From positions 68,572,001-68,636,000 of the forward strand of contig OX597824.1 in NCBI GenBank assembly GCA_951406725.2: a stretch of 64,000 bases of DNA, written 5' to 3'. A program made the translations under genes and the position numbers. The notes beneath the pieces were generated by a model. It ran no database searches. It had not been told where the DNA came from and saw nothing but the letters and a program-made list of their open reading frames with translations. This stretch comes from Octopus vulgaris. Taxonomy: Eukaryota. Of the stretch, positions 5,324 through 56,516 are shown piece by piece. Every line of letters begins with the position of its first letter. Position 1 is the first letter of the stretch.

Positions 5324-5417
5324 TAATCCAAACAGGAAAACACAGAAAAAAAACAGCAACGCGAGGACGTGGAACAATTAAAGTATTATTTGACGCTCAG
5401 GAAAGAAGGGAAGGAGG

Positions 5418-5452
5418 GTTTAACGTTTCGAGCGGAGCTCTTCGTCGGAAAC
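5418..5452 (-). ncRNA. Minimal type-I hammerhead ribozyme motif (degenerate core) in a PLE-type terminal repeat
   Basis: Minus strand: gttt-CCGACGA-agagc tcc gctc-GAAA-cgt-TA-aac; stem III region aacgtt is palindromic. Confidence 0.55.
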
Positions 5453-6007
5453 AAAGGAGAAGGAAAGATCCAGAGAAGGGAAGACAAAGGAAAAAATATT
5501 TTTGCTGGTGGTGCTCAGGAGATCACATATATATATACGTGCACGCGCACACACTTATATATATACGATTCTTTATGCTACTCTAGATCTAAATTGTGGC
5601 TTACACTTTTCTTACCATAAATTAAATGAAGATTTACATTGCCTATGCAAACACTCAAATCATCCTACGTTTTGTTAGAGACAATCACATTAGAAATATT
5701 TCACTTATAATATTTAAATTATCAACAAATGAACGAATATTCAATGATCACGCATAATATTAAAAGGCACTGAAAATAGAAAGTAGATCGAATAAAGAAA
5801 ATGACAATATTCCATTCCTTCCGGTGAACAAGGAAACCGTAAGGGGAAGATAGGCGCTACCCTAAAACTGAAGAAGGGTGCAAAGAAATTCTACTTTTAC
5901 TTAATTGCACAAAGTGTCGCCAGGAGGACTGAACCTGAAACCATGCGGTTGCAAGGCGACAAAGCGAACTTCTTAACTGAACAATACACAACCACGCCTG
6001 CGCTTCT

Positions 6008-27821: not shown

Positions 27822-27895
<74 letters not shown>

Positions 27896-28017
27896 AATAT
27901 GCTGAGAATAGACTTTAAATCGCCAATCACCATATTACAATATACATTCACCATGAATACACGTCGTGCTGAAATCGAGGAAGGCAAGCTAACAGAATTT
28001 TTTTTAAAGTCTGTTAT

Positions 28018-28061
28018 CTCTATATTGAATCAATTTCGGGATTTTCCCCTCCTTAGTAGAG
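28018..28061 (-). ncRNA. Type-I hammerhead motif (core G5 to A)
   Basis: Minus strand: ctcta-CTAAGGA-gggg aaaa tccc-GAAA-ttgattcaa-TA-tagag. Confidence 0.55.
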
Positions 28062-28546
28062 AATACGATAAGAAATAAATGAAAAACTTACAACCACCCA
28101 TGGAAAAAAGCAGAATCAAGAGTCATAAGTACACATAAGTACCTCAGTTATATCTAAATGTAAAATCCTTTAGCAAGCCTCAGCACACATGTGACTGGTC
28201 ACGAACCACAACTTTTTGTGGTTACCAGTACCGAAGTGAATGGTAATAAATTTACTTCTAATATAGGATAAAAAATTTTCCAAAAAAAATTCATCAAAGT
28301 GGTAGCATATTAAGATACTTTTAAAAGTGAAAATTATGAACAATTATAAACAAGGGCAAAAGAAAATATATTTCTATGCCGATATGCTGAGGCTTGTTAA
28401 AAATTTCTATGAGGCTTGCTAAAAATTTCTAGGCCAGTGTGCTGAGGCTTGCTAAAAGATTTTGCATTTAGATATAACTGGGGTACTTATGTGTACACAT
28501 GACTCTTGCTTCTGCTTTTTTCCATTTCATTTATCTCTTATCGTAT

Positions 28547-28605
28547 TCTCTACTGAAGAGGGAAAAATCCGTAGAATTAATCCCGAAATTTATTCAATAT
28601 AGAGA
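28547..28605 (+). ncRNA. Type-I hammerhead ribozyme with canonical core
   Basis: tctcta-CTGAAGA-ggga...tccc-GAAA-tttattcaa-TA-tagaga: 6-bp stem I, 4-bp stem II, AUA cleavage triplet. Confidence 0.75.
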
Positions 28606-28851
28606 TAAGGAATTAAAAAAAAATTCTGTTAGCTTGCCCTTCTCGATTTCTGCACAACGTGTATTTTTAGTGAATGTATATTGCAATGTGGTGATTGACG
28701 ATTTAAAGTCTGTTCTCAGCGTATTGGCATGGGAATTATTTTCTTTTACCCTTGTTTCTAATTGTTTATAATTTTCACCTTTAAAGGTACTTTAATATGC
28801 TGCCACTTCAATGAAATTTCTTTTGGAAAAAAATGTTATCCTATATTAGAA

Positions 28852-28897
<46 letters not shown>

Positions 28898-29271
28898 ACG
28901 CACACACACACACACAATATGGGGCTCTAGTTCACAGGTGATCCAAACGATTAAGTATGCTAGGTAGATGCTGTAACGGACTACTAGGGCTCCAAGGTTA
29001 TAACCGACACAGTAGTTATGGCGCCATTCCAGATTTCCGATATAGCAGATATATAATTATTAAAGAGAACAAAAAAGTTAAGGCAAGGCAATTATCTCAA
29101 GTCATATACATTATTATTATTATTGGAAAAAAGAAAATTCAAAGTCTTACAGCTGTTTCTAGGATATCCCTGAATTTTGCCTTGCCTTGACGCTTATATA
29201 TAATTTCTTTTCCGTAATGAGATAAAAAAAAACACAAGGCCATGTAGATTTTAGAACATTTATAAATAGAA

Positions 29272-29320
29272 GGTTTTACAGCTGTTTCTGGGATATTTAT
29301 TATATCCCTTCACCAGAAAC
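29272..29320 (-). ncRNA. Minimal PLE hammerhead motif
   Basis: Minus strand: gttt-CTGGTGA-agggatat aataa atatccca-GAAA-cagctg-TA-aaac; palindromic stem III cagctg. Confidence 0.65.
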
Positions 29321-29545
29321 GGTGTGAGAAGATGGTTAAGCAATAGTTAATTTAGATAAGATACGAAGTAGAGAGTGAGGTGGAGGAATGAAAATAGATG
29401 TGAGATATGCAGGGATATTGTATTTGTAGATCCATTATTTAGGCAGAATGGTATACATATAAGATTCCAATACCTTATGAGTAAAATCCAATAGTATTTA
29501 AAATTGGTCCTTCCAAGTATAGAGTTTATACACAGTGTTATTGAA

Positions 29546-30021
29546 TTTCGTCCTATATTTATGGACTGCCATATTAGCTTGGAGATAACTGTTAATATCC
29601 AGTACCGCTGCCGTAGTCTCCTTTAGAGAGACTTCGAAATGATAATACTTCTATTTTTGAAAACCAGTGAATGTATTCCACTGAAATTAGGTAAATAATC
29701 CTTCGAACAGACGGTCAGTAGCGACGCCTGTGGGTTGGGCTACTATGCATTGATAAAGGGCAAATACCCTGAAACATGTCTGCAGATGCCTGACTAGCAA
29801 GGGGAAGCGGCTGACCTTCCCTGTTCGAAGGTTATAATAGACACAGGTTCGTGTGTCATATAGCTAGCTAGAGGCGACGGCCTCCTGGAGCTAATCAACA
29901 GCAGCTTTCGTCCTATATTTATGGACTGCCATATTAGCTTGGCGATAACTGTTAATATCCAGTGCCTCGGTCATAGTCTCATTTAGAGAGACTTAGAAAT
30001 AATAATACTTCTATTATTGAA
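29546..30021 (+). mobile_element. Non-LTR retrozyme-like insertion: 360-nt monomer plus 116-nt terminal redundancy
   Basis: Direct repeats at 29546-29661 and 29906-30021 (offset exactly 360, ~10 mismatches); flanking ttattgaat duplicated; absent from the sister pLTR at ~30495; contains a hammerhead. Confidence 0.75.
29733..29795 (+). ncRNA. Type-I hammerhead ribozyme, U3-A8 core variant
   Basis: tgca-TTGATAA-aggg caaata ccct-GAAA-catg-TC-tgca; stem I extends past an internal loop (ggttgggc/gcctgact); GUC cleavage triplet ends at 29780. Confidence 0.7.
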
Positions 30022-30720
30022 TCAAGGGTTTTATTTAAAGTGACCTAAAAGTAGGAAATGTATTAGTAAGGTCAAATCGAAAACAGGAAGAGAGGAAAAA
30101 AGAAAGAGAAAAAAGAGAAAAAAGAAAAAAGAAAAAAGAGAAGAAAATAAGAAAATAATAGAATAATAAAAAATATATAAATAAAGAAGAAAGAACAAGA
30201 AGAGAAGAATGAAGTAAAGGAATCAGTTAGTGGTCAGTCGAGATAATTTGAAAGTTGGAATGGTGAGATAAGAGTGATAGATAAGAGTGAAAGGTATTAT
30301 CACCCTTATCTCCCCATATCTCAACTGACCACTAACTGGTTCCCTTACTTCATTCCTCTCTTCCTGTACTTCTTTTTTTCTTATTTATTTTTAATTTTAT
30401 TATTTTTTCTCTTTCTTTATTCTTCGCTTCCTGTTTTCGATTTGACCTTACTAATATATTCCCTACTTTTAGGTCACTTTAAATAAAACCCTTGATTCAA
30501 TAACACTGTGTATAAATTCTATACTTGGAATGACCAATTTTAAATACTATTGGATTTTACTCATAAGGTATCGGAATCTTATATGTACACCATTCTGCCT
30601 AAATAATGGATCTACAAATGCAATATCCCTACATATCTCACATCTATTTTCTTTTATTTCCTCACCTCACTCTCTATTTTATATCTTATTTAAACGATTT
30701 CTTAACCATCTTCTATCACC

Positions 30721-30768
30721 GTCTCCGATGAAGGGATATAATAAATATCCTGGAAACAGCTGAAAGAC
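30721..30768 (+). ncRNA. Minimal PLE hammerhead motif (inverted pLTR copy, degenerate)
   Basis: gtct-CCGATGA-agggatat aataa atatcctg-GAAA-cagctg-AA-agac. Confidence 0.6.
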
Positions 30769-31203
30769 CTATCTATAAATGAAGAAAGAGAAAAAGAAGA
30801 GAAAAACGATAAAAAGAAAGACTAAGGAGAAGAAAGTAATAAGAAAAATAATAATATAATAAAATGATATAATTAAAAAAATTTTAAAAACAGGAAGAGA
30901 GGAATAAAGGAAAGAAAGAGAGAAAAAATAAAAACAAAGATATAGATAAGGGAAAATGTACCAGTTAATGGTCAGTGGAGATAATTTGAAAGTAGGAGTG
31001 GGGAGATAAAGGGTGATAGAGAGAGAAAGATATTAGAGTGTAAGAAGATAGAAGGAATGGGAGGAGGGTAATAAAAGGTAAAGGAGTGACAAATGTGTAG
31101 TGATGGAGTCTAAGTGATGGGGCAGAGAGGAGGTTAGTAGTAAAGAATGAAAAATGAAGAATTTAAGAATTTAGAAGTTTGGCAGGTCAGTGCTTAGTCA
31201 GTG

Positions 31204-31591
31204 CTAGCAGTATCGCCCGGCGTTGCTCGGGTTTGTTTCCGCCCTTTAGAATTGGAATTTTTGAAAAATAAAAATTTAGCATTATGTAACTTCTTATTCT
31301 TTTTAAGTGAACATTTTTCTGGTTTAAATACACCGAAAAATGGCGACACAGCAGTCAAAAAATCGTAAAAAATAGGGATTTTCATAGAAAAAAAGCATCT
31401 TTTTGATGTAAATAATTTTTGGTGTTAACATGGTCCGATTTGAAATTTTTCTTCTACGGAAGGAGGAGCAAGCCTTCTTCTATCATACTCTCAGTTTTGG
31501 TCAACTTGCACTGCAGGGTCTCGGAGGAGATAGTGTTAGTTAAAGGCTACCAAACCTGCCATACACAGACAACTTCAGCATTATATAGAGA
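31204..31591 (-). mobile_element. Non-autonomous Helitron nested in the PLE
   Basis: Minus strand begins TC(tctatataatgctgaag) and ends with hairpin cccgagcaacgccggg followed by CTAG. Confidence 0.75.
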
Positions 31592-31967
31592 TATATATGT
31601 AAAGATGTATACATATGTATATATTAGACATGTATATATATATATATTTATACGGATGTTTATACATATCATTATCCATGCACACAACTCTTACTCGTAT
31701 GTATATGCACACATGTGCACCCACATATACGTGCATCTGCATATATTATCGCCCCTCTATACGTAGGTATATATTCCTTGCATACATACATAATTCACAC
31801 ATACACACATACATATACGCATACACACATTCATACATATACACGCACTTATGGATGGATGCACATACACACGAATATAATTAGATGGTTGTGATATTCG
31901 AGTATGAGTGAGGAATTAGATAGGGATTAGGAGTTAGAATGTAGATTTGTAAGGTTATTGGGACTAC

Positions 31968-32453
31968 CTAAGGAGTATTGTGGAAATGTACTGTATGGTC
32001 GTTTAGGCATTTGGATTTGTGGTAGAATTTGAATATGTGAAAAAAGCGGTGGTTGCATGCGCTTAGTGCCTCATTATGTTTATTTAGCAGTACTGGAGAG
32101 TTGTGCTTTAATATGTGAAGTGCCTCCTTCAGGCAAAATTTACAGTTTGAGCGTTGACCTCGGTAGGGAAGTCCTGAGTCCAGTATGGACCATGATAGAG
32201 TATAGGGTATATTTGTATTTTTGAGATGGTGTATGTGGTTGGCGAGTGTTGTAGATTTACCACGTTTATCGTATCTAAAAGAATGGAGATTAGTGGCATA
32301 TCGTTGCTTAAATTTTTTTGTTGATTCTATGTATTTGGCTGTAGAGTCGTGTAATAGGTTAAGGTCCGTGTATTTGTAAATTACATTATATCTTCTGCAA
32401 TGAGTTTGTAACAGGCAGATGGCTCCAGGACGGCAATTACAATTAGGTGAATT
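31968..32453 (-). pseudogene. Penelope-like GIY-YIG endonuclease domain (open frame without Met, missed by the ORF track)
   Basis: Translates CNCRPGAICLLQTHCRRYNVIYKY...KYIESTKKFKQRY...HSFRY...STTLANHIHHLK...WSIL...CKFCLKEALHI...LLNKHNEALSACNH. Confidence 0.85.
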
Positions 32454-32526
32454 TTGGTGACTGTGTTCATTAATATAGGAGGTAGTATCGTCAGAGTAGA
32501 GGTTATAGGAGGAGTGGATAATTCTA

Positions 32527-32572
<46 letters not shown>

Positions 32573-32839
32573 GTTATCATATCTCAAATCCCATCTCAAA
32601 CACGCAACAACCATCACAATCGCAACCAACAACACACATTCGTCGATTGAACCCTGGAAGGTCTTGCACCTAGGCAATCTAGACCACATATACAACATTC
32701 GTTTTACACTAGGTCAAAAACAAAAATAACTAAAACAGCTAACAATAACGGGCCTCGCCTCCCACATACCTTCTCCAAAAATATAGATAGCACTCCTCTA
32801 TCTAATTACTTAGATAGCTCTACTCCCAGACCCCCTAAA

Positions 32840-33120
32840 AAAAGTGGCGGACGCTCTATTCTGTGTTACACACCACCATTCTCACTTAACGTTAAGAACT
32901 TAGCTAAATCCTTCTTTAGAATACTAGACTCTAACTTCCTTCGACAACACAAATATCATTCTATCTTTAATCGAACCACCCTGAAACTATCTTATTCTAC
33001 CTCACCCAACTTTGAATTTATTGTAGCAGCCTCTAATAAGCAAAAGCTCTCTCTTTACTATCAAAACTCACATAACTACAACTCTAGTAATACGAACACT
33101 CGACACACACACGGCTATAG
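32840..33120 (+). pseudogene. Penelope-like RT-thumb/linker fragment, inverted relative to the GIY-YIG
   Basis: RSILCYTPPFSLNVKNLAKSFFRILDSNF..HKYHSIFNRTTLKLSYSTSPNF parallels RNIIWFDPHFSFNV of the element at 46150. Confidence 0.8.
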
Positions 33121-34230
33121 TACAGATACCCCTACATTAGACCACAACCACAACCCAACCCATCCTACTGACACTGCCTGGAACACCACCGCAACCTCTA
33201 CCGCCTTTACAAATAGTACAATTAGTAACAACAATAGTAGTAATAGCAATGATAGTAATGATAACGCGTACGTGTATGTATATGTGCATGTGTGTTTGAA
33301 TATATGTATGTGTATGTATGTATGCATGCATGTATGTAAGTATGTATGTATGTAAGTATGTATGTATGTATGTATGTATGTATGTATGTATGTATGTATG
33401 TATGTATGTATGTATGTATATGTATATGTATGTAGGTAGGTATGTCTAAATGTATGCTTTTCTTGCTTTAGACAAACTCTGTTCAAATTCACAGACGTTC
33501 CAGCTGTGACAATCCCATCCTGGCAGAGGTAAAGAATACGTACATCACCCGTTTTCGCCGTAAAAAACCCCTAAACATAACCTTAAATCCTAAACCTTAA
33601 CCCTAACCCTAAACCCCGGGTGTAGGTATCCTTTACTTTCGCACCATTTTTATCCCGCATATAACGTAGATTCTATCATATCGTTTCTTTTGTGTCTAAT
33701 AGATAGTAAGCTATGATTTGAGGTACATTTTATTGCTATTTCTAGCACGTCATGCGACCACTTAGAGGCACACGCGTTAGAGAAATGTTTATATTTTAAC
33801 TGAAGCGTGACTTAGCGTCTTATACGTTCATTCGCACGTTATCGCCTTTTTTATGTTTCCATGGAAACAACGAGTCATATGTACTGCAGCAAAGTCGCGT
33901 CGTTGTTTTTGTTGTTATTTTCTTAGTTACGTTATTAGTTAATGATGTTCATTTGTTTTGTGGTGTTGGATGTAGCAAGCATTGTGTATGTTAAAAGGTC
34001 ACTGCTGCTTTTGGCAATGTGTGCGTGTGCGTGTGTGCACATGTTGCGTGTCACTCCTCATCTTATTTCTCCAGTGTGTGTGTGTGTGTGTGTGTGTATA
34101 ATGCATATGTATATATGTATGTACATATATATATGTATAAGTATATATATATTCATAAATGAAGGTGAAAAATTAGATATTAATTTAATAATACCATCAG
34201 TTTAACACCAAGTGGCTTAGCACATAAATT

Positions 34231-44194: not shown

Positions 44195-44727
44195 TTTTCT
44201 ATCAAGTTCATAAACATAAATCCGAAAAAAGAGGCTTCTCTAAGTTATAGAGCAGTATAATTAAAGTTAGATAAGGCCGGTTTATGGGATTACCTTAGGT
44301 TTAACGTCTATAGAGGGCCTGGCTTTATGGCGTATCATCAGATCGCAGAAACCTGTTGGCTAAAGGCCTCTCTAGTAAGTGACCTCTCTAGGATATGGAG
44401 GAGGAAATGAGCTCGTTACTCAATGTCAACAAAGGAGATTGTCTCTCCTTGACTATCGATTGCCGATGTCAACAAAGTAGGGTGTGTCTCTTTGGCTATC
44501 GATTGCCGATGGCCATGCTACCTCGTGGGATCCAATAGGCTAGAAGGAATTTCTTGAGATGCAAGCACGGTCCAAAGACTTTCGTTCTTGAGTTCAGGAT
44601 GTTCCCTTGCTGGAGGGGTCCTTTATGATCCTCGCCCGTTCCTGTGTGCATAATTTACAGCGGTCGGTCCCGTTAATGTATGGGTTTGGATTCTCTAGGA
44701 TTCTCCCTGATACTGTGAATGGAATAC

Positions 44728-44960
44728 TTATTTCTTTACTGCCCACAAGGGGCTAAACACAGAGGGAACAAACAAGGACAGATAAACGGATTATGTCGAT
44801 TATATCGACCCCAGTGCGTAACTGGTACTTATTTAATCGACCCCGAAAGGATGAAAGGAAAAGTCGACCTCGGCGGAATTTGAACTCAGAACGTAACGGC
44901 AGATAAAATACGGCTACGCATATCGCCCGGCGTGCTAACGTTTCTGCCAACTCGCCGCCT
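44728..44960 (-). mobile_element. SINE family C inserted into the PLE endonuclease
   Basis: 8-bp TSD tggaatac at 44720-44727 and 44961-44968; removing it restores the reading DGIPFTVSGRILENPNPY. Confidence 0.9.
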
Positions 44961-47053
44961 TGGAATACCGTCGTCTGTTAGCTGCCATACGTGGCTGGCT
45001 AATGACGTAATGAATCTCCTTTCCGGTATCCTTAAGGAGAATCTGTGGTTGTAGAGGCGTTGTTCGAACGAATTCCCGGAACAGCTGATGTGTCTCCTTG
45101 GTCGGGTGTGGGCGGTGGTGTATCTGTTGGCATCGGTGCCGTCGTTGTTGCCGGGACTGGCGCTGTTAGTGCTGGCGTTGCTGGTGTTGGTGGCGTTGGT
45201 GCTGGCGCTGTTGGTGTTAGTGTTATTGGAGGTGGAGATGGTGTTGGTACCGCCAATGCCGATGTTGGTAAAGTGCCGTTGGTAAAGTGCCGCCAATGCC
45301 GATGTTGGTAAAGTGCCGTTATGGCTATCGCTATTGATGGAGGCAGTGTCATTGCTGTTGTGGATGTCATTGGTGATGTCTCTACTGCTATTTCCGTTAG
45401 GGTTGCTGTCGTCGCTGTTACTGATGTTATCGCTGGCGATGGCACTGCCGTTGCTGCTATTGGGACTGTCGGGCCCTCTGCTGAAGACGTAGCCGTTAGG
45501 TAAGCTGCTGCTGATGCCGCTGTTGTCATTAGGGGTACTACAATTGCTGTCGTTGATGTTGTCGCTGGCGATGGTGCTGTTGGTTCTGTTCGCGTTTCTG
45601 CTGCTGCTACTATTGGTATTGACGTCCCTGCTTCTGTGGTCACCGTTAGGGGAGCTGCTGATGTTGCTGTTGTTGTTGTTGTTAAGCAACAAGACGGTTA
45701 AGGGTGATTAGGTGATGGTCTAGGGCTTAGGGGCGGGAGACCCCAGACCTTGAAAAAAAAAAAGAAAAACTTTGGTCGTCTTGTTGTAGTCGAGGGCTCT
45801 TCGTTGACACCCAACACCACTGGGAGGTGACCCTCGAAGTCGCTGAAAATGGAGACCTCCAGGTCCAAATTCTTGGATGGCTGCTGTTGCTGCTGGGTTG
45901 GCCAGTACCTCTGCTTCGTAGACTACTACCTTGGTTTCGCGGTGGCCCCTCACTGGACAGCTATTGCGATCCCTGCACGAACATCCTTCCTCCGCTCGTG
46001 GTCTAGAGGTGCTAAGTAGAATGCTCTTAATATTATGGGCACGGCTAAGAGAGACCCTAAGGTTGTGCCTGTTGAAAATGCGTCCGTATCTATCTGAATT
46101 AGTGAAATGTTTATCTTATTAACTTAAGGAATATCCTACCTGCAGGCGTTTATACGTTAAAAGAGAAGTGGGGGTCAAACCAAATGATATTTCTATGGTA
46201 CTTCCTTCTGCGGATGTTGGGGCCCGGCATGTAGGAGATGCGGTTCTTTAATCCGCTAGCAGCTGGGGCCTCGTTATAGTAGGAGGCTGCTGCATCAAAA
46301 ATCTCTTGGCTGGAGGAAAGGTTCGTGATCCTCTTACTAACACCCTTCACCAAGTTTTTGAATACGATGGGTGGGTGACAGGATGCTGTATTGATAGACT
46401 TTAGCCTCTCATTTGGCTTGCGGTAGGGCCTGTATGTACCGGAGCCCAAGTCGAGCGTGATGTCTAAGAAGTCCGCGGTGGTGAGGTTTGTCTCGATGGT
46501 GAGTTTCAGTCCCATGGAGGCAAGTGTACTAATTACATCTTTCCTAAGTGTGTGGCCGATAGCTCCCCTTGAGATGACCAGGGCGTCATCTCTGTTGAGA
46601 CCGAAGAGGACGGAGGGGAACATTTTCTTAAGTGTATTAAGGGTATACAACCCGATAAGGTCTCATACATCAGCGCTGACGTAGGCCCCCATCGCTACAT
46701 CAAAGGAGCCTACGGGGTCGAACTGCTTGACCCAGGTCGAAACTTTATTGGATAGCACTGTTTTCTTGCCGTGCAAAATGACGTCTATATTCCTGTCGCT
46801 AATACCAGTGGATCTCCAAGCGAAGTAAAGTGTCATGCCCAGTAACCCTTTTGAAACAGACAGGTAAAAATCAGCTATGTCAAACTGAGTGAACCTTGCT
46901 ATGCCTCTCCCCCTGTTGGTGTTAATGTTGACATCGGCGATCGATAGCCAAGGGGAGACAATCCCCTTTGTTGACATTGAGTAACGAGGTCATTTCTTCC
47001 TCTATATTCTAGAGAGGTCACTCACTAGAGATTCCTATAGCCGATAGATTTTG

Positions 47054-47112
47054 AGACCTGAAGATACGCCATAAAGCCAGACCCTTTATAGATGTGAAAC
47101 CTAAGGTAATCC
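47054..47112 (+). ncRNA. Hammerhead motif in PLE pseudo-LTR (mirror copy at 44287-44345, minus)
   Basis: CTGAAGA-tacgccataaag...ctttatagatgt-GAAA-cctaagg-TA-atc; the mirror copy has CTGATGA but TAAA. Confidence 0.6.
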
Positions 47113-47461
47113 CCAAAACCAGCCTTATCTAACTCTAATATATATATATATAAATATAGGCTAATATTGGTAAAATGAGACATACATATCTACATGGCCG
47201 AAACAGCTGTAAGATGTAATCTATACTTATATTTATATTTACTTATATTTATATTCTCTCTTTTATATATTTTCTACTTATTATACAACATTGCTCTTTT
47301 ATGTACACTTTTTTATGTACATTCCTTTGTGAACACTGATTTGTTCTGCTTTTTTATGTTTAACCCGACAGTCTCTTATGTGGTGGTTTAATAAAGTATG
47401 TGATTGAGTATTATCTGATAATTGATATTTGATTTAGATGTATTTCTCCATTTTCTTATCT

Positions 47462-54431: not shown

Positions 54432-55722
54432 CTAGCAGAATTGCCCGGCGATGCTCGGGGCTGAATTGCTTGTAAGTACTGTTAATGATCGCACTGAATT
54501 ATGATGATTATTCAGGCAAATATTGATATAAGTTTACGGTGGGAGATAAGGACTTAACGATCAAACGTGTGCCATTGCATTGTTTTGGGTGAACCAAATT
54601 TCTAATGAGCATTATAGGGGCACCAATTTTAAGTTTGAGAAAGTGTGGTGGTAGTCCGGGGTGCCCAAAGGAATTGAGTACCTCTATTGGATAGTTGATG
54701 ACGTCCTCTGGGTCAGGAGTTGTATCGACAGACTTATATACATAGACTTCCCCAGGAATGAGTTTTAGCATTTCATCATTAATATGGTGAACAGTTTTAT
54801 TCCTCGGGGCCAGAATAGCCCTTTGGCCAATCCAATCCATATTCTGATAATTAGCTTGTAGATCTGGGAACACTGCATCTCTGAGATCAGAAGGCGTTTT
54901 AACAATGGTACAAATGGAATCGATGGCAATATTACCATTTTCATCCCCTGGTATTTTGCCTTCGCCAAGTGCAAGGAGGGTGTGAGAAAATGCTGCTAAT
55001 GTGATATTACGTCGCATATGTGCACGCATATTGGTGTGAAGTTTGAGAGTCTTCACCAGTGGCCACAATGTGGATGACTTAAGACACGTACTTACTGCAT
55101 CAGCTCTAGTCCCTTTGGGAATAACGGGAAGTGTTTGTCGGAAGTCCCCTGAAAGAAGAAATGTTATGCCTCCCATGGGAGCTGAAGAGTGTTTGATGTC
55201 TCTGAGATATCTATCTAGTGCCTCAAGAGCACGTCTGTGGGCCATCCCAAACGATAAGCTTGCATCGTCTGAAGACTTCTGCCTGATCGGAGCTGTTAAT
55301 GATGTTGCAAGTTGGTGTCTCAGTCTTCGCTAAGTCAAGCGGAAGCTTGAAAGTGGAGTGAGCTGTCATGCCGCCTGGCAACAAATTCCAGATGATGCCA
55401 CAATTCCAGATGATGCCACAGCTAGGGCAATGCCTTGTGTTCGCCTAATCTCAGCCAATATTAATTTGTTGACAAAAGTTTTCCCAGTGCCCCCAGGAGC
55501 GTCCAGGAAAAAAATCCTCCCAGTTTTGGCCCGGACTGAATTAACAACGGAGTTGTAAGCAAACTTGTGTTCTGGAAGGAGCTTTGGCTCATTGTCGGCT
55601 ATGTACTCGGCAAGCTCATCAACATTAAAACATGTCTCACGCAGGAAATGTGAAGACAGAGTGTTTGTGCCTTCCCGGTTTGTTGAAGCTAGGCCATAGA
55701 CCGGCAAGGCACTACCGCCCAT
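54432..55722 (-). mobile_element. Helitron 3' fragment with a PIF1-like helicase pseudogene
   Basis: Walker A FFLDAPGGTGKT, AVASSGI, LSGDFRQTLPVI, NMR, RAILAPRN, GLPPHFLKLKIGAPIMLIRNL, CNGTRL; 3' hairpin cccgagcatcgccggg followed by CTAG|T at 54432; internal deletions. Confidence 0.92.
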
Positions 55723-56516
55723 ATCAAGTACAGTATCTTCGAACGTAGTTTGTTACCACACAGCCACACCTGCCCCTATGTATGTGTGTGTGTGTACGTG
55801 TGTGTGTATGGGTAGATATATTATGCATGTATATATGTGTATATATATGTGTGTACATATTACATGTACATCTATATATATATACATCTACACATAAAAT
55901 ACAAAATACAAAGTTATATCTTGATATCGCTAGTGATAACAATACTCAAAATATATAACAGACTGGAATTGTAGGCCCGTCTCTTGCAATTTCGATCAAT
56001 TGGATCTTGTCCTCCCTCTTGTATAGAAGTGTATGGCTGCAGCGAAATTCATTTTTGGACTTTCTTCTATCGAAGGCATTTTAACAAAAATGCTTCCGTA
56101 AAGACGGTGAAAATATTGTCAATTTCCCCAAACAGGGACACAATTCAATTTTGAAACAATAACCAAAGCCCCCTCTCCGAAAGGGGGAGGGTTACGGTTT
56201 ACAAATGCAATTTAACAAATGCAACACAACAACGTTTCCCTGGCGAGGAACCAACAAACGTGATTACAATAGTCAAACTGTAATAATAATTACAACAAAC
56301 CTTTTTAATTTATCCCCATTTATGTGAAACCACTTATTCAAGTTCAAGTCATTGATGCAATTTTATACGAATTGCTAATACACACACACATAATAAGGGT
56401 GAAAAATTGAATATTAATTTGATTAATATGAATTGAAAACCAGTGGTGTAGCATATATGACCATAGCGGATCTTCCTCTAGCAAAAAGGATGACCTCTAT
56501 TAATGGCTCATCCCTG

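Follow-up and report, generated by a model that had tools for sequence, protein, structure and literature searches.

A stack of four apparent insertions with predicted hammerheads, two of Hydra-type PLEs and two retrozyme-like, in Octopus vulgaris DNA

The window analyzed, a stretch of 64,000 nucleotides of Octopus vulgaris DNA, contains at 27893..33270 what appear from the sequence to be four decayed insertions lying side by side (Table 1). B and D are read as 3' parts of Hydra-clade PLEs, A and C as non-coding units, and A, D, B and C adjoin one another directly. Most element copies in this stretch are probably dead. Both kinds of element, the Hydra PLE and the retrozyme-like unit, are known already, and the locus is a fresh example of them.

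Table 1. Features of the stretch 27893..33270, in window coordinates
Feature	Position	Strand	Remarks
Family A, 5'-inverted arm	27893..28391	-	About one ~490-nt unit; ends in a (TA)n tract
Family A predicted type I hammerhead, damaged	28017..28062	-	Core CUAAGGA; stem II shortened; helix III AUUGAUUCAAU
Family A main arm, non-coding, retrozyme-like	28437..28853	+	3' end at (TA)n, usual for the family
Family A predicted type I hammerhead	28547..28605	+	Core CUGAAGA intact; single helix III change
(TA)n/(CA)n tract	28854..28915	.	A and D both have their 3' end here, tail to tail
Family D, 5'-truncated 3' end of second Hydra-type PLE	28916..29194	-	Cut inside its own hammerhead
Family D hammerhead, 3' half only	29144..29168	-	Helix III ACAGCUGU; 5' core missing
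Family B, 3' terminus of Hydra-type PLE	29195..29546	-	
Family B predicted hammerhead, damaged	29272..29320	-	Core CUGGUGA instead of the family's CCGAUGA
Family C, 1.3 units of 360-nt repeat	29547..30021	+	Non-coding, retrozyme-like, inserted into B
Family C predicted hammerhead	29746..29784	+	U3-A8 core UUGAUAA (family form); helix III ACAUGU
Family B 3' UTR, part upstream of C insertion	30022..30299	-	
Inverted duplicate of B 3' region	30300..30781	+	Belongs to the one PLE insertion
Family B predicted hammerhead	30721..30768	+	Core CCGAUGA; U16.1 changed to A
Family B 3' UTR	30778..31198	-	
Unrelated ~385-nt repeat inside PLE B 3' UTR	31204..31590	.	
Family B 3' UTR, proximal part	31591..31967	-	
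Decayed C-terminal GIY-YIG endonuclease, Hydra-clade PLE B	31968..32570	-	CxCX5C, CxxC, E, N, CxH
RT-endonuclease linker of PLE B	32578..33266	+	Inverted, 5' end of the insertion

Five hammerhead motifs (28018, 28547, 29272, 29746 and 30721) and a partial one at ~29144-29168 were found where the initial annotation had placed them. Its count of about ten motifs in the window also held (5427, 28018, 28547, a half motif at 29144, 29272, 29746, 30721, 44299, 47058 and a half motif at 47200), with the helix III sequences it had listed (cagctg, catg, aacgtt, cctaagg, ttgattcaa). A descriptor allowing at most one mismatch found 3 motifs in 27893-33270, far more than by chance, for 150 block-wise dinucleotide shuffles averaged 0 and never exceeded it. 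A strict descriptor missed B and decayed copies, and a homology-aided census was used in its place. In Rfam the hammerhead was absent from the best 150 of 201 matches, nearly all of which were microsatellite-driven miRNA matches. Read against the family alignments, the family-type core is kept in two of the five full motifs, those at 28547 (CUGAAGA) and 29746 (UUGAUAA). The motifs had been assigned to three unrelated families, but four were found, B being the 3' end of the PLE itself and the partial motif belonging to D, which shares with B the core CCGAUGA and helix III ACAGCUGU.

The order of RT and GIY-YIG, the protein motifs and the hammerhead place B among the Hydra-clade PLEs, an assignment based on sequence features and on reference sequences compared only by eye. 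The ORF at 31968-32528 reads CNCRPGAIC followed by CKFC..E..LLN..CNH, which is the Hydra-clade pattern of linker and endonuclease, and in several other copies the 3' end of B runs colinearly into linker, GIY-YIG and RT. The nearest Atlas clusters for B were GIY-YIG (score 0.96). Pfam matched neither RT nor GIY-YIG on the B fragments, and a search with longer proteins likewise gave neither, which is weak evidence. No intact ORF was found among the copies examined. The hammerhead of B lies near its 3' end and its target is (TA)n, both features of the Hydra type. The repeat inside its 3' UTR is, judged by its ends, presumably Helitron- or Helentron-like. D carries an inverted arm of ~21 nt at 29174-29194; a sense-strand GIY-YIG lies upstream in 7 of 25 D loci, and 20 of 25 have a microsatellite at their 3' end.

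In the passages of Craig et al. 2021 (PMC8557442) drawn on here, Hydra PLEs have (TA)n as their insertion target and bear hammerheads of this sort. Like B, members of the clade such as Hydra-1_Obim have a C-terminal GIY-YIG with a CxCX5C linker and with CxxC and CxH flanking E and N; like B and D, they target (TA)n, show 5' truncation as well as inverted arms, and bear their hammerhead close to the 3' end. The PLE at 44.9-47.1 kb of the window closely resembles the Hydra-1_Obim protein by eye, whereas B and D are other families, the RT of B being ~40% identical to that element. B and D also differ from the Hydra-clade PLEs described in those passages in their long 3' UTRs (~1.5 kb in B), and their core CCGAUGA (U4C) is absent from the Hydra table there. 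The U4C change is a weak natural variant among minimal PLE hammerheads, according to the relevant parts of Cervera & de la Pena 2014 (PMC4209133) and Perreault et al. 2011 (PMC3088659). The alternative label Naiad was ruled out for this PLE, which has a hammerhead and a C-terminal endonuclease, whereas Naiad, as portrayed in the same passages of PMC8557442, has an N-terminal endonuclease and no canonical hammerhead.

The nesting of one family within the PLE terminal region, noted in the initial annotation, was borne out: C sits inside the 3' region of B, flanked by the 9-nt duplication TTATTGAAT at 29538-29546 and 30014-30022. Its target was an AT-rich spot of the B UTR with no TA tract, and its hammerhead caps a predicted stem of considerable length. 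The unit of A measures ~490 nt, is non-coding and has one type I hammerhead, and the inverted and main arms of A are circular permutations of each other. Family A helix III may fold alone. Homology ended at the unit boundary in 29/29 other loci of C and likewise in 29/29 of A. Copies of C, up to 700 nt long, start anywhere on the 360-nt circle, and most of them stop at monomer positions 50-52 or 94-109; copies of A wrap round the circle in the same way; the more-than-unit copies L337 and L068 hold two hammerheads. Inverted arms at the 5' side were present at 13 of 30 C loci and 18 of 30 A loci, and microsatellite 3' ends at 17 and 25 of 30, respectively. The predicted circular folds of both C (z -4.6) and A (z -3.1) are more stable than shuffles, with similar scores for the antisense strands. 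A compensated U3-A8 core was found in 31 of 36 rows of the C alignment. A match of 22 nt shared by C and D was discarded: its orientation with respect to the hammerheads is opposite, and a rough hand estimate placed it at chance level. No RNA dataset was listed as containing a central C copy. Contigs of four runs presumed to be RNA cover C and showed 360-nt back-joints in 4/4, which need not come from circles because genomic more-than-unit copies carry such joints as well.

A and C resemble the animal non-LTR retrozymes, as these are presented in the sections used of Cervera & de la Pena 2020 (PMC7229834) and Li, Clavereau & Pollet 2026 (10.64898/2026.07.22.740005), in being non-coding units of 150-500 nt with one type I hammerhead, in their more-than-unit copies, structured RNA and larger TSDs, and in their proposed mobilization by PLEs. 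Unlike those retrozymes, they occur chiefly as dispersed 1-2-mers that have inverted arms, and their hammerheads are of the minimal PLE type rather than the canonical one. Likenesses to the minimal, dimer-cleaving PLE hammerheads, within the same parts of PMC4209133 and PMC3088659, are a palindrome in helix III, one additional base ahead of stem II, a covariant U3-A8, the presence of many families in a genome, and pairs on opposite strands 100-700 bp apart.

Hammerhead elements do cluster near element ends. Within 300 nt of element ends in 135 loci, foreign hammerheads reached 124/Mb, from 10 events over 80.9 kb, compared with 24/Mb in 120 random 10-kb stretches (p 1e-4). The underlying census, drawn from 1.2 Mb of the 2800 Mb, counts too few decayed motifs. 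Controls centred on (TA)n gave ~60/Mb, matching about half of the rate at element ends and leaving a 2-fold excess of borderline significance (p 0.05-0.24), and most of the 10 close junctions pass through short or long TA tracts. The surroundings of SINEs held 1 hammerhead in 181 kb. A crude hand calculation from the 135 loci put the number of four-element chains at ~14. Shared targeting of (TA)n likely explains most of the clustering, and the 2-fold excess over the TA controls allows for some further attraction.

With family membership and boundaries, the nesting of C in B, permuted more-than-unit copies of A and C, inverted arms, microsatellite ends, co-clustering and the helix III palindromes established, we consider it probable that A and C were copied by Penelope-type enzymes and that A, B, C and D came to be stacked through common (TA)n or AT-rich targets, which all four favour. 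A and C transcripts would self-cleave and then be ligated into circles, C probably as a double hammerhead since its helix III lacks the length to fold by itself. The RT/GIY-YIG protein of a PLE, acting in trans, would nick AT-rich DNA and copy one to two turns of the RNA after priming at an AT-rich site in it, and the TA tracts at the ends of old elements would serve as targets for later insertions. Against this proposal stands an in vitro result on Xenopus retrozymes, in which only 1 of the 9 dimers tested cleaved, as given in the part of 10.64898/2026.07.22.740005 used here. The initial annotation had proposed that this PLE is master to parasitic circular RNAs, a PLE-retrozyme model already published; the non-coding nature of A and C and their PLE insertion marks suggest as much, but nothing links them to this particular PLE. 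No master was identified for either, BLAST detected no similarity of A or C to the 3' end of B, and none of the loci examined has a PLE terminus with homology to A or C. The locus is a tidy case of known biology, Hydra PLEs and retrozymes with common targets and insertion marks, and the PLE-retrozyme model gains invertebrate support.

Re-insertion at earlier PLE sites, also proposed in the initial annotation, is borne out at element ends, and a dedicated homing in which the PLE machinery recognizes earlier PLE or retrozyme sequence itself would build such nested clusters. The position of C within B, the 5-fold excess near element ends with ~2-fold left over the TA controls, and the tendency of PLEs towards insertion in or beside earlier copies, reported in the portion consulted of a review (PMC6765202), all fit homing. 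However, about half of the rate is matched by the TA controls, most junctions run via TA tracts and the residue is borderline; moreover, Hydra ORF matches lay beside 0/29 C and 0/29 A loci compared with 9/120 random stretches (~1.5 expected, a comparison of low power). We regard homing as unlikely. A purely coincidental meeting of abundant repeats that share no targeting is less credible still: with hammerhead elements at at least 24/Mb, ~6 stretches of 5.4 kb with at least 4 events would be expected genome-wide under uniform placement, but the excess near element ends and TA tracts, with none near SINEs, and the direct abutment of A, D, B and C argue against it. Equally improbable is a spread of A and C at the DNA level, satellite-like or MITE-like, with the hammerheads as inherited relics. 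The few long tandem arrays among the loci speak for it, whereas the dispersed copies, which vary in their 5' starts, favour certain 3' ends and have inverted arms, speak against it, and the compensated changes in the core and helix III indicate selection on the RNA fold.

The helix III palindromes bear on the further claim that they restrict cleavage partners. Self-complementarity of helix III is clearly maintained. In family C it reads ACAUGU or ACUAGU in 315 of 326 motifs, a palindrome switch within one family, and another family has the forms ACUGCAGU, ACUCGAGU and ACCCGGGU. Lunse et al. in 2017 reportedly dealt with dimer cleavage and may have covered switching of this kind; the dimer-initiation palindromes of retroviruses offer an analogue of a partner code. 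The C switch, with almost no intermediates, was not met in the parts of PMC4209133 and PMC3088659 used here. We put forward, as a speculative and rather doubtful idea, that helix III palindromes are a partner-recognition code whose switches split or join lineages sharing one PLE enzyme, with element ends seeding hot spots beyond TA. If so, jumps of helix III would change which RNAs are available for pairing and cleavage, splitting or joining lineages. The two C subfamilies are ~90% identical and differ in helix III by a two-base swap; this natural matched pair is of practical value, since it makes cleavage of dimers between like partners only, and its effect on retroelement evolution, directly testable. 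Restriction of partners is plausible in silico, but strict isolation by palindrome as a general rule was ruled out, as B and D share ACAGCUGU and one C insertion, L336, carries both palindrome types (1 of 2 tandem pairs among the 100 matches listed).

The feature at 27893..33270 is real, with its anatomy corrected here, and the kinds of element in it are already known. The five motifs and one partial motif claimed by the initial annotation were all found, and about ten claimed for the whole window correspond to ten whole or half hammerheads located at 5427, 28018, 28547, 29144, 29272, 29746, 30721, 44299, 47058 and 47200. Using a relaxed descriptor, with 150 local dinucleotide shuffles as control, three motifs deviating at no more than one core position were detected in 27893-33270 versus none in the shuffles. 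Only 28547 and 29746, compared with their respective families, kept the family-type core, and no hammerhead was among the best 150 Rfam matches listed. The surrounding assembly comprises 2.8 Gb in 227 contigs; the window is rich in microsatellites.

Positions of the elements in the window and of related loci elsewhere in the genome
Feature	Coordinates	Remarks
A, non-coding retrozyme-like repeat	27893-28853	
D, PLE 3' part	28916-29194	
B element	33266 to 29195	minus strand
C, inserted in B	29547-30021	
Inverted duplicate within B	30300-30781	source of second B hammerhead
Unrelated repeat in B UTR	31204-31590	~385 nt
5' inversion of B	32578-33266	
Second decayed Hydra PLE	44260-47140	PLE part 44.9-47.1 kb
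Three-palindrome family	L015:1930-2170, L038:1300-1450, L166:6480-6860, L307:1990-2300, L334:2100-2460	

Family B is the Penelope-like element (PLE) itself. Mapping on 30 loci each of B and GIY-YIG gave the order linker, GIY-YIG, 3' UTR, hammerhead and an end at 29195. These parts were colinear in many genomic copies (e.g. L094-L097, L099 and L102), and the RT lay upstream in copies L323, L325, L331, L334 and L335. The B endonuclease carried the Hydra-clade marks CxCX5C, CxxC and CxH and matched GIY-YIG clusters in Atlas with a score of 0.96; Pfam on the B fragments and a long-protein search gave no match. Of 58 B rows, truncated copies included, 38 had the core CCGAUGA and 41 had ACAGCUGU as helix III. 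The repeat in the B UTR had fixed ends and was present in 5/120 random stretches; at locus L028 it occurs in tandem, immediately following a C copy.

Four families, not three unrelated ones as first proposed, make up the feature, D being the fourth. The D query (28916-29173) returned 2491 first-look candidates. Other D copies had a whole hammerhead with core CCGAUGA and helix ACAGCUGU, both as in B, and a fixed 3' end, located at microsatellites in 20/25 loci. In 7/25 loci a GIY-YIG in sense orientation lay upstream, its matched stretches sharing about 39-64% identity with that of B. Hence D represents a sister PLE of which the window contains the truncated end.

A and C are both non-coding repeats. 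First-look candidates numbered 2605 for A and 3252 for C, and homology between copies ended at the unit border in 29/29 other loci for each family. C, which lies inside B in agreement with the proposed insertion within the PLE terminal repeat, is bordered in the window by TTATTGAAT on each side. C copies begin at any point on a 360-nt circle and reach 700 nt, and most of them have their end at monomer position 50-52 or 94-109; A wraps round a circle of ~490 nt and ends at (TA)n. Inverted arms were present 5' in 18/30 A and 13/30 C loci. Paired arms or repeats differed at ~9-11% of aligned bases, indicating that the insertions are old. Predicted circular folds were more stable than those of shuffled sequences (C, z -4.6; A, z -3.1), with antisense strands nearly equal. 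The C core was UUGAUAA (U3-A8) in 31/36 rows, a covariant already described in PMC4209133 and PMC3088659. In a diverged A relative (L157:1400-1900, ~74% identical), stem I and helix III (AUUGGACCAAU) have both undergone compensatory changes.

The effect of the helix III palindromes on partner choice was proposed to be restrictive. Among the first 100 C motifs listed, 66 had ACAUGU and 34 ACUAGU (counted by eye); in exact context, 11 of 326 motifs had neither, one of these being another palindrome. ACUAGU copies clustered on the tree (2 changes versus a shuffled mean of 6.5), which shows amplification of a subfamily, not repeated origin. Another hammerhead family had perfect palindromes ACUGCAGU, ACUCGAGU and ACCCGGGU in five loci. 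Predicted duplex energies of C pairs were -4.6 and -4.8 kcal/mol for like and +0.9 for mixed pairs. The sequences and predicted energies support selection for a self-complementary helix III, as expected under the dimer model (PMC4209133). They do not demonstrate selection for the exclusion of other families, because any two different palindromes pair poorly, tandem transcripts can dimerise in cis, B and D have one palindrome in common, ACGU accounts for most helices in the random sample (22/35 motifs) and both C types occur together in a single insertion. This 1.5-unit insertion (L336, G000:C4:57368800-57371200) has ACUAGU in unit 1 and ACAUGU in unit 2, which suggests that the template was mixed or was switched. 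None of the titles and abstract starts retrieved in a literature search dealt with whether retrozyme families distinguish homo- from heterodimers, although Lunse et al. 2017 may cover this. The palindrome-switch pair of family C is the part worth an experiment.

Co-location was analyzed against 120 random stretches of 10 kb, at positions within the coordinate ranges seen on 28 large contigs. A homology-aided census gave 29 hammerhead insertion events (24/Mb) in this sample, and the strict descriptor found 0 motifs in 5 rounds of shuffling. The flanks of A and C contained 12 foreign events in 161.5 kb (p 0.002). In regions ≤300 nt from the ends of 135 A/B/C/D loci the density reached 124/Mb, with 10 foreign events in 80.9 kb (p 1e-4; a few D loci overlap). 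This excess at element ends favors the proposed re-insertion at earlier sites, but TA tracts match about half of the rate: (TA)n-tract controls gave 58-83/Mb, with a residual excess near ends of p 0.05-0.24, and TA tracts were found at most of the ten close junctions, as at the A-D and D-B junctions in the window. Uniform placement predicts ~6 four-event windows genome-wide. Given the end excess, TA controls, junctions and this estimate, the clustering is real and attributable mostly to TA targets, and the cluster in the window is an expected tail. The expected PLE ORFs beside the units were not found, Hydra ORF matches occurring at 0/29 C and 0/29 A loci versus 9/120 random stretches, a comparison of low power. 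Hammerhead elements appear scarcer beside SINE copies, the control around 310 copies (random loci L141-L260) giving 1 event in 181 kb versus 24/Mb overall.

Anatomy, copy structure, targets and covariation are demonstrated. Following the published model (PMC4209133 and PMC7229834), transcripts would self-cleave and be ligated into circles; GIY-YIG would nick AT-rich DNA and the PLE RT would then copy circles for one to two turns, inverted arms arising presumably during second-strand synthesis. PLEs of the Hydra type that carry hammerheads and target (TA)n, one octopus family among them, are already known (PMC8557442), as are non-LTR retrozymes with proposed PLE dependence (PMC7229834, 10.64898/2026.07.22.740005).

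The second PLE in the window is close, compared by eye, to Hydra-1_Obim (PMC8557442), a likeness that marks the window as probably octopus-like. Its head-to-head hammerheads at 44299 and 47058 have helix III ACCUAAGGU, and its endonuclease region contains a SINE; the half hammerhead at 47200 has helix ACAGCUGU. A very abundant short hammerhead element with helix III ACGU, stem II AGAGCUCCGCUC and a (TA)n end occurs at window 5330-5540 and at loci L034, L042, L270 and L277, and motifs of this ACGU type often lie where copies of B, D and A end. Fragments of a PIF1-like helicase at 54508-55752 (Pfam PF05970, PF21530) are probably a Helitron remnant.
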